Shown one piece after another: positions 61,127 through 63,148 of a DNA stretch of 64,000 bases (position 1 is the first letter of the stretch; every line of letters begins with the position of its first letter). Below the pieces are notes generated by a model, which was not told where the DNA came from, did not search any database, and saw only the letters and a list, made by a program, of their open reading frames with translations. This stretch comes from an uncultured Acidobacteriota bacterium (GTDB lineage: Bacteria; Acidobacteriota; Thermoanaerobaculia; UBA5066; Gp7-AA6), in the NCBI GenBank assembly GCA_963764715.1, contig CAVXTP010000014.1, forward strand, positions 181,378 to 245,377, in the 5' to 3' direction. The position numbers and the translations under genes were made by a program.

Positions 61127-62143
61127 GTGGCGACCGTGGGGATCTTCGGCCTTGGCCGGATCGGGCGGAATCTCTTCCGCCTGCTCTACCCGCGGGACGA
61201 CCTCCGGATCGGAGCCGTGGCGGACCTCGCGGAGCCGGAGGGCGTCGAGTACCTCCTCCGGTTCGACACGCTCCTCGGGCGTTTCCCCGACGAGGTCTCG
61301 GCGAAGGACGGCTATCTCTACTGCGCCGGGCGGCGCATTCCGCTCATCACCGGCAAGGCCCAGCCGGCCGTCCCGGCGTGGGGCGAGCTCGGCGTCGACA
61401 CGGTCCTCGAGGCGACCTCCCGCGGCCGCCGCCGCGCGGAAGTCGAGGCGCACCTCCAGGCCGGCGCGAAGCGCGTGATCCTGCTCGCGCCGCCGCTCGA
61501 GCCGCCCGACGTAACGATCGTCCGGGGCCTGAACGACGAGGCCCTCTTGGCCTCCCACCGCATGATCTCGAACGCCTCGTCGACGGTGCACTGCCTCGCG
61601 CCGGTGCTCCGCCTGCTCCACGACGCGTTCGGCGTGCGGCGCGCGATCTTCACCACGATCCACTCCTACACGAGCGCGCACCGCCTCGCCGACGTCCCGG
61701 CCGAGGACAAGCGGCGCGGCCGCGCCGCCGCCGAGAACATCATCCCGCAGGAGTCCCGCTCCCCCGCGATGCTCCTCGACCTCATCCCCGAGCTCCGGGG
61801 ACGCCTCTCCGGCTACGCGATGAACGTCCCCGTCTCCAACGGCTCGGTCGTCGACCTCGTCTGCTGGCACGAGCGCCCGGCGGCGCGGGACGCGATCAAC
61901 GAGGTCCTCCGGACGGCGGCCGGCTCGGGCCGCTGGCGGCACGTCCTCCGCTACGAGGACGAGCCCATCGTCTCCTCCGACGTCGCGCGCTCCAGCTTTT
62001 CCTCGACGTTCGACTCGCTCGCCACGATGACGCTGACCGACCGCGTCTCGAAAACACTCTCCTGGTTCGACTCGGGCTACGGCTACGCCCACCGCGCCGT
62101 CGAGCTCGTCGAGCGCTGCGCCGCCCTGGAGAAGGCCCCGTGA
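61127..62143 (+). CDS. GAPDH paralogue lacking the catalytic cysteine (putative pseudoenzyme)
   Basis: [22 protein letters not shown] and PIVSSD are conserved, but SNASSTVHC replaces SNASCTTNC. Confidence 0.85.
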
Positions 62144-63148
62144 CGATCAAGGTCGGGATCAACGGGTTCGGCCGCATCGGGCGGAGCGTCTTCCGCATCC
62201 TCGCCGATCGTCCGGACTTCGAGGTCGCCGTGATCAACGACCTCTTCGACAACGACCACCTGGCGTACCTCCTGAAGTACGACACCGTCATGGGCGTCTT
62301 CGACAAGGACGTTTCGACCGACGCCGAGAGCATGACCGTCGGGGGCCGGCGGATCGCGATGACGGCCGTCAAGGACCCGTCGAAGATCCCGTGGGGCGAG
62401 CACGGCGCCGGTATCGTCATCGAGTCGACCGGAAAGCTCCTCGTCCGCGCGGAGCTCGAGAAGCACCTCCAGGCCGGCGCGCAGAAGGTCGTCCTGACCG
62501 TTCCGGCCAAGGACGAGATCGACGCCATGATCGTCATGGGCGTCAACGACTCCTCTCTCGAGCCGAAGCACCGCCTCGTCTCGAACGCCTCCTGCACGAC
62601 CAACTGCCTCGCCCCGCTCGCGAAGATCCTGGACGAGGCGTTCGGCATCGAGGAAGGCTTCATGACGACGGTCCACGCGTACACCAACGACCAGCGCCTG
62701 GCCGACGTGGCCCACAAGGACCTGCGCCGCAGCCGCGCCGCGGCGGAGAACATCATCCCCACGACGACGGGCGCCGCCCGCGCCGTCGGGAAGGTCCTGC
62801 CCGAATCTCAAGGGCCGCCTCGACGGCATGGCCATCCGGGTCCCCGTGCCGGACGGCTCGGTCGTCGACCTGACCTGCCGCGTCCGGCGCCCGGCCTCCA
62901 CGGCCGAGGTCAACGGCGCCGTCCGCGCCGCGGCCCGCGGCGACCTCGCCCGCATCGTCGAGTACAGCGAGGTGCCCCTCGTCTCCTCGGACATCATCGG
63001 CAATCCGCACTCCTCGATCTTCGACGCGCTCTCGACGCAGGCGAGCTCGGACGGCTACCTCAAGGTCGTCGCGTGGTACGACAACGAGTGGGGTTACTCG
63101 AACCGCGTCGTCGACCTCGTCGAGCGGCTCGCGGCGCTCGGAATCTGA
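62140..63148 (+). CDS. gap: Type I glyceraldehyde-3-phosphate dehydrogenase, with a +1 frameshift near 62800-62806 (probable sequencing error)
   Basis: GTG start, [22 protein letters not shown] and TTVHAYT in one frame; [17 protein letters not shown] in the next frame. Confidence 0.9.

Follow-up and report, generated by a model that had tools for sequence, protein, structure and literature searches.

Directly upstream of gap in an uncultured acidobacterium of the class Thermoanaerobaculia (GTDB lineage Gp7-AA6) lies a second gene of the type I glyceraldehyde-3-phosphate dehydrogenase (GAPDH) family, whose product lacks the catalytic cysteine. We use the working name GapX for such Cys-less type I GAPDH paralogues upstream of gap. 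Both genes are found near the end of a 64,000-nucleotide stretch of contig CAVXTP010000014.1 (assembly GCA_963764715.1, positions 181,378 to 245,377), which was analysed as a whole and is called the window here. Our preferred reading, with a probability of about one half, is that GapX is a non-catalytic, NAD-binding partner subunit of the active enzyme Gap. GapX and Gap would then be made together from overlapping, translationally coupled genes, GapX would adopt a GAPDH-like fold able to bind NAD(H), and the two proteins would assemble as mixed tetramers across the dimer and S-loop interface, which is conserved, with GapX tuning or stabilising Gap as its partner subunit. GAPDH tetramers are known to show half-of-sites behaviour, which a dead subunit could hard-wire; alternatively, GapX might sense NAD(H) or a phosphorylated metabolite through its remodelled anion site. 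We favour the partner-subunit reading because GapX is strictly co-located with gap, the two genes are coupled, the constraint on GapX is focused on the interface, the NAD motifs are kept and the cysteine has been lost repeatedly.

Both GAPDH domains are present in GapX (Pfam Gp_dh_N, E 2.4e-21; Gp_dh_C, E 8.1e-42), and the protein ends at residue 338 with no C-terminal extension. Its identity to the neighbouring Gap is 44% in the N-terminal part (219 residues) and 46% in the C-terminal part (114 residues), and it scores 277.6 bits against TIGR01534 (type I GAPDH, EC 1.2.1.12), below the curated equivalog cut-off of 367.2; the match to the Epd family TIGR01532 is weak and also below threshold (226.8 against 530.55). 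The initial annotation of the locus had been correct in describing a full-length, uninterrupted frame that overlaps gap by GTGA and in which Ser has taken the place of the catalytic Cys, while the motifs TTTG, AIRVP and WYDNE have become QESR, AMNVP and WFDSG (Table 1). It was equally right that the Rossmann motif, the catalytic His, the second Cys (C156) and the S-loop are retained. Thr179 and Arg195/197 of the anion-site region are kept as well; Thr208-Gly209, the inorganic phosphate site of GAPDH, corresponds to Ser210-Arg211, and Arg231, the substrate phosphate site, has been replaced. Since GapX has no Cys nucleophile, the thiohemiacetal and thioester of GAPDH chemistry cannot be formed, and GapX, judged by its sequence, is incapable of the canonical reaction. 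It probably still binds NAD(H): the NAD site keeps GxGxxG and the Asp (Asp32 in GAPDH numbering) that binds the adenosine ribose of NAD, but Asn313, which positions the nicotinamide, is Ser.

At least 120 homologues at 68-97% identity were retrieved by a word-indexed search. Those with names are labelled Thermoanaerobaculia, and the stretch S148-N149-A150-S151-S152-T153 (SNASST) is invariant in their alignment. In public records these proteins carry the name "type I glyceraldehyde-3-phosphate dehydrogenase". Within the same genus and order, a full-length orthologue was found in 30 of 41 genomes; in the remaining 11, the gene is in pieces in two (G012, G022), five genomes of one family have a canonical GAPDH only, and four (66-90% complete) gave no match. 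None of the 30 orthologues has Cys at the catalytic column, which holds Ser in 23, Arg in three, Pro in three and Gly in one, and S210, R211 and S212 are invariant among them. All 30 end in a TGA stop, and in each case a canonical gap comes next in the same orientation; it is full-length in 26 and split or partial in the other four (L004, L016, L019, L022).

The gene pair extends well beyond this order. A sample of 201 Acidobacteriota genomes of at least 80% completeness yielded 21 further loci, a lower bound, with gap directly downstream in 21/21; the upstream copy is Cys-bearing in 15 of them and Cys-less in six. A profile built from the 30 orthologues was searched against 1.84 billion cluster representatives; in the best 150 matches the Cys column held Cys in 123, another residue in 24 and a gap in three, the Cys-less matches being concentrated in ranks 1-30. 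When five of these representatives were used to scan contigs from one genome per species, 80 loci emerged (79 Cys-less, one with Cys), 77 of them with a canonical gap directly downstream and the other three lying at a contig end. According to the record labels of these metagenome-assembled genomes, which may be imprecise, the 80 loci belong to Fidelibacterota (22), Fibrobacterota (10), Krumholzibacteriota (9), Acidobacteriota (4), Pseudomonadota (3), Latescibacterota (1) and Eiseniibacteriota (1), with 30 unlabelled, so that the pair occurs under seven phylum labels in all, Acidobacteriota and six others. Of 124 complete pairs, 95 have a 4-nt overlap (NTGA) and seven a 1-nt overlap, and in the rest the two genes are separated by 1-35 nt. 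No upstream-clade copy was found away from gap among the 30, 21 and 80 loci, apart from the three at contig ends. The initial annotation had proposed a search for SNASST-type homologues, a check of conserved adjacency to gap and a test for a ratio of nonsynonymous to synonymous substitution (dN/dS) below 1, and all three came out in its favour. Pairwise dN/dS values (NG86) range from 0.093 to 0.223 for GapX (21 pairs) and, similarly, from 0.062 to 0.248 for gap (20 pairs); they indicate that GapX is under purifying selection and is not decaying. Three genomes flagged as unpublished (L027, G030; L036, G064; L053, G189) fall within the counts of 30, 21, 131 and 124 given here and below, and no conclusion rests solely on them.

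Phylogenetic trees were built with FastTree (132 rows) and IQ-TREE in quick mode (99 rows). All upstream copies, together with 14 of the representatives, form one clade (support 99) apart from the downstream gap products and other canonical GAPDHs (support 99), and both trees rule out an origin of GapX as a recent tandem duplicate of its neighbour. Upstream and downstream copies fall into matching sub-groups (for example L041/42/48, L043/45/46/52 and L044/47/49/50/51), which indicates that the gene pair has been inherited as a unit. Within the upstream clade, the Cys-less family of the window is a single clade of 32 rows (support 99). The Cys149 position is still occupied by Cys in 16 of the 131 upstream copies, in other acidobacterial lineages, and the tree requires at least five changes of Cys state; forcing the 49 Cys-less rows together was rejected (log-likelihood difference 85.1, approximately unbiased test p 0.007), though the test is weakened because the group was chosen with the tree already in view. 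That some copies retain the Cys points to the Cys-less state being derived, and the trees indicate that it arose more than once; since a single loss is rejected, the pairing of the upstream gene with gap predates the loss. Retention of the Cys in orthologues, which the initial annotation had named as an outcome that would speak against its idea, is therefore real in 16/131 copies and absent from the same order (0/30).

The residues that fill the Cys column in the Cys-less groups are varied (S, A, G, R, P, F and T), and the catalytic His is lost in 2/131. Repeated loss of Cys, occasional loss of His and a varied Cys column are what one would expect of a protein selected for something other than catalysis. 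A role of Ser152 as a substitute nucleophile was considered and rejected as a property of the family, since orthologues of the order have S, G, R or P in this column. At other positions the upstream clade is distinct: Arg197 is present in 131/131 copies, the Arg231 column holds Asn in 117 and Arg in four, Gly209 is replaced by Trp in 77 or Arg in 35, Glu314 has become Gly in 125, and Asn6 has become Met, Phe or Val in 120. Even the upstream proteins that retain the Cys are already without the canonical phosphate sites. Cys and His are both present in each of the 124 downstream copies, whose other catalytic positions are canonical wherever covered, with Arg at the Arg231 column in 121 and a gap in the other three. 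In a comparison of loci L036-L056 and L057-L063, the partner gap products carry LTVPAK and an S-loop with ADVP, against I(S/T)APA(T/K) and LDLP in single-copy acidobacterial gap products. The ADVP form of the S-loop is common to GapX and its partners, and these motifs may be the signature of a partner-adapted Gap.

An AlphaFold2 monomer model of GapX has a mean predicted local distance difference test (pLDDT) score of 88.0 and a predicted template modelling score of 0.87, and is unconfident only at residues 182-191 and 194-206, in the S-loop. Its best fold matches (Foldseek) are the GAPDH of Geobacillus stearothermophilus, including the C149A and C149S mutants (TM 0.85-0.86), within a range of 0.85-0.87 for GAPDH structures overall; the best sequence match in the PDB (E 1.3e-83) is the engineered C149S mutant of the same enzyme, which likewise reads SNASST. 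The S-loop has a pLDDT below 50 in the monomer model, and its residues 195-207 fall within the modelled interface. For the complex, GapX was modelled with an intact Gap taken from the closest relative, the window's own gap being frameshifted. The heterodimer scored 0.63, against 0.00 for the best of three controls; 116 of 157 solved complexes and 2 of 215 mismatched pairs attain this mark. The runs agreed on 100% of contacts, and the pLDDT of the partner was at least 91. The modelled interface comprises 39 residues of GapX, in 172-178, 195-207, 225-247, 280-284 and 296-311. Column entropy in the upstream clade is 0.94 bits at these positions against 1.63 in the rest of the catalytic domain, and only one of 5000 random sets of catalytic-domain positions was as low; the positions come from a model and include residues of the core sheet. 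The downstream copies give no such contrast (1.01 against 0.96 bits). The two pair members are 59% identical at the interface against 41% in the rest of the catalytic domain. These values support a concentration of constraint in GapX on its predicted subunit interface. Of the initial annotation's proposal of a retained interface and a heteromer, the first part has thus gained support from constraint and the second from the model score (0.63 against 0.00), but the association exists as a model and the pass could come from likeness to homotetramers.

Several points weigh against GapX as a partner subunit. GAPDH homotetramers have been solved structurally many times, and the complex model may have passed through memory of, or likeness to, these; it indicates that the dimer interface is still GAPDH-like and falls short of showing that GapX binds Gap. 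Association of the two proteins is modelled only, and the model does not distinguish a heteromer from a GapX homomer built on the same interface, whose positions, moreover, overlap the generally conserved sheet core. A natural GapX-Gap fusion was not found among longer proteins, where six matches had E of at most 1e-60 and three were examined, which is weak evidence for absence. Support for expression is also weak: in the RNA library X18, which may hold DNA, only short contigs of about 88-90% identity cover GapX, at 61616-61725 and 61977-62127. The 16 of 131 upstream copies that keep Cys also have His, and the upstream protein may have been an enzyme in its ancestral form and may be one still in those lineages. 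Finally, residues of the pocket are conserved, namely His176, Thr179, Arg195/197, Ser or Thr at 208 and a clade-specific Trp or Arg at 209, and ligand binding or some other chemistry fits this better than a purely structural role.

The main alternative, possible if on the unlikely side, is that GapX stands alone, probably as a homotetramer, as a neofunctionalised protein, either an NAD-dependent enzyme that needs no thiol nucleophile or a binder or sensor of a phosphorylated metabolite, and is co-expressed with gap only because both serve lower glycolysis. The conserved pocket, with a family-specific S210-R211-S212 invariant in the order and Trp or Arg at 209 in the clade, agrees with this, as do the kept NAD motif and the Cys-containing orthologues, which could be true enzymes of other specificity, with Asn already at the R231 position in most. 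Such an enzyme or sensor would sit less easily with a Cys column that varies so widely in the Cys-less groups, with the occasional loss of His, with the loss of Asn313 in the window's family, with constraint that falls on the interface rather than on the pocket loop 211-220, or with an upstream-clade gene that was never met apart from gap among the loci examined. A moonlighting or regulatory function without a stable complex with Gap, such as binding of RNA or DNA through the NAD cleft, action as an assembly or redox chaperone, or control of gap translation, appears improbable. GAPDH is well known to moonlight through its NAD-binding cleft, and the coupled gene order would suit a factor that acts on Gap during its synthesis, but the sequence carries no sign of nucleic-acid binding and such roles need no conserved interface of the whole tetramer type. 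The idea that GapX is a decaying gene copy on its way to becoming a pseudogene, or an artefact of annotation or assembly, can be dismissed almost entirely. Several catalytic residues were lost together and the assembly has an indel in the neighbouring gene, but 131 copies have an intact frame, dN/dS stays at 0.09-0.22 and conservation extends across phylum labels.

Table 1. Features of GapX and gap in the window (GAPDH residue numbers where these differ from those of GapX)
Feature	Position	Strand	Remarks
GapX open reading frame	61127..62143	+	338 aa, GTG start, uninterrupted; GAPDH-type paralogue without catalytic Cys
Rossmann motif GLGRIGR, residues 8-14	61148..61168	+	G8, G10 and G13 in 131, 130 and 129 of 131 upstream copies
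Asp33 (Asp32 in GAPDH numbering)	61223..61225	+	Asp in 125/131 upstream copies, Glu in 6
Ser152, codon TCG, at the catalytic Cys149 position	61580..61582	+	SNASSTVHC against SNASCTTNC in the neighbour
His179 (catalytic His176), kept	61661..61663	+	His in 129/131 upstream copies
S-loop, residues 186-207	61682..61747	+	one of the stretches that vary least across upstream copies
QESRS (208-212), replacing the phosphate-site loop TTTGA	61748..61762	+	context IIPQESRSP in GapX
Asn233 in place of substrate-phosphate Arg231	61823..61825	+	AMNVP against AIRVP in the neighbour
Ser316 in place of Asn313	62072..62074	+	WFDSG(YGY) against WYDNE(WGY)
GTGA, GapX stop TGA (62141-62143) over gap start GTG (62140)	62140..62143	+	translational coupling
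Canonical gap, first frame, residues 1-221 (SNASCTTN, His, TTTG)	62140..62802	+	reads correctly to GKVLPE
C-run with one extra C, shifting the gap frame	62800..62802	+	alignment with the 97% relative; base left out in runs X2 and X8
Canonical gap, second frame (WYDNEWGY; stop 63146-63148)	62803..63148	+	next frame after the indel

The neighbour of GapX, taken in the initial annotation for a canonical gap, does have the canonical residues but is not one open frame here. In the assembly, gap (62140-63148) is broken into an open frame at 62140-62809 and another with its end at 63148, and the extra C responsible was located by alignment with the locus of the closest relative, whose GapX is 97% identical. 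Two public contigs from different studies, 98% and 99.5% identical, both lack the extra base. The C is left out in run X2 at a depth of 9.32/9.32 (427-nt contig, 8 other differences) and in run X8 at a depth of 7.07/13.2 (215-nt contig, 1 other difference), the public runs compared each sharing at most 0.34 of the window's words and the window's own strain not being among them. A search for a second GAPDH gene in the genome (96.8% complete, 26 contigs) found none beside this gap and GapX. As near-identical contigs lack the base and the genome holds no other GAPDH gene, the frameshift is most likely an assembly error, which we favour over a strain-specific lesion, and the locus is most likely to be read as GapX with a working gap. 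In four relatives (G012, G022, G002, G034), assemblies of few contigs and low completeness have GAPDH matches broken into many frames, which suggests that assemblies in this genus are rich in indels.

A scan for promoters and terminators round the gene pair found no promoter-like site, and terminator-like sites only upstream and on the minus strand. Eight nucleotides after the gap stop, an open frame without a Pfam match begins on the plus strand (63156-63998), whose start resembles a signal peptide and whose later stretches resemble an esterase-type GxSxG context. Upstream, at 57827-61043, are a DinB-family protein, an alpha/beta hydrolase, a peptidase S58 and, on the opposite strand, a DUF4440/SnoaL-like protein, all unrelated to glycolysis, and neither pgk nor tpi adjoins gap. 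Among the matches of the fusion search, P0274 and P0275 were rejected as frameshift artefacts, in which a truncated first domain is followed by out-of-frame sequence, P0276 holds GAPDH-like stretches in pieces, and by Pfam two of the other three contain a PGK domain and one transketolase-type domains. The second-ranking match of the profile search, P0125 (2089 aa), was rejected as a dead-live fusion, as all four of its GAPDH modules keep the Cys; these modules are of two alternating types with a PGK domain between, the second type lacking Asp32 and having the NAD motif GAGRISLA. Two such modules followed by HEAT repeats make up P0150 (1455 aa). A look-up of P0142 in the ESM Atlas returned generic GAPDH and Epd clusters only.

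GAPDH is among the most studied of enzymes, and the bacterial enzyme is treated as a homotetramer. With type I GAPDH (G. stearothermophilus, 1GD1; C149S and C149A mutants, 1NQ5 and 1NPT), GapX shares both domains, the fold, the NAD motif, Asp32, His176 and the S-loop, but it lacks Cys149, Thr208-Gly209, Arg231 and Asn313, falls below the TIGR01534 cut-off and forms a separate clade. Epd, a divergent GAPDH paralogue with altered substrate use, resembles GapX through a weak family match and a fold match (2xf8); Epd retains the catalytic Cys, which GapX does not, and GapX lies below the TIGR01532 cut-off. In plant chloroplasts, GapA and GapB form a regulated heteromeric GAPDH (A2B2, A8B8) from two paralogous subunits together with CP12, both subunits being catalytic and regulation acting through the Cys pair of a C-terminal extension of GapB or through CP12. 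The comparison with this system made in the initial annotation is no more than an analogy: GapX has neither the catalytic Cys nor an extension and belongs to a separate, old clade, so that the plant-type features are absent (CP12 was not searched for).

A full-text literature search found no description of a bacterial Cys-less GAPDH paralogue beside gap. The nearest printed case is the flagellar TbGAPDHL of trypanosomatids, a conserved GAPDH homologue that is predicted to be inactive, with a cofactor site that is possibly kept (PMC4106842). Its orthologue in Bodo saltans is predicted to be competent, a parallel to the Cys-retaining orthologues of GapX; the eukaryotic protein, however, is a component of the paraflagellar rod, is not encoded beside an active GAPDH, and is read as the relic of a lost pathway (PMC4106842). 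Dead paralogues that act as partners are described for the trypanosomatid AdoMetDC prozyme, GMPPA/GMPPB and Fam20A/Fam20C (PMC6221367, PMC11228364, PMC4421793). In such cases a dead paralogue is kept under selection and acts by binding its active counterpart. GapX is likewise a dead paralogue of an active enzyme under purifying selection, and for it binding is proposed; those cases are eukaryotic and experimentally shown, whereas the GapX pair is bacterial, operonic and translationally coupled, with binding modelled only. A review of aldehyde dehydrogenases mentions pseudoenzymes, in its available part, for ALDH16 only (PMC12041015).

A broader and distinctly tentative proposal is that the native glycolytic GAPDH of Thermoanaerobaculia, and of lineages that carry at least six further phylum labels, would be an obligate mixed tetramer combining live with dead subunits. 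The dead subunit would bind NAD(H), and perhaps a phosphorylated metabolite at a remodelled anion site, and would either hard-wire half-of-sites behaviour or confer a response to redox state or metabolites, the Cys-retaining orthologues being living intermediates between enzyme and regulator. If this is true, the native GAPDH of these organisms differs from the textbook form, and metabolic models, annotation and ideas on cooperativity would be affected. The current naming of GapX genes as type I glyceraldehyde-3-phosphate dehydrogenase overstates the copy number of gap, and the Cys-retaining and Cys-less orthologues, found in the same arrangement, offer a natural series from enzyme subunit to non-catalytic partner.

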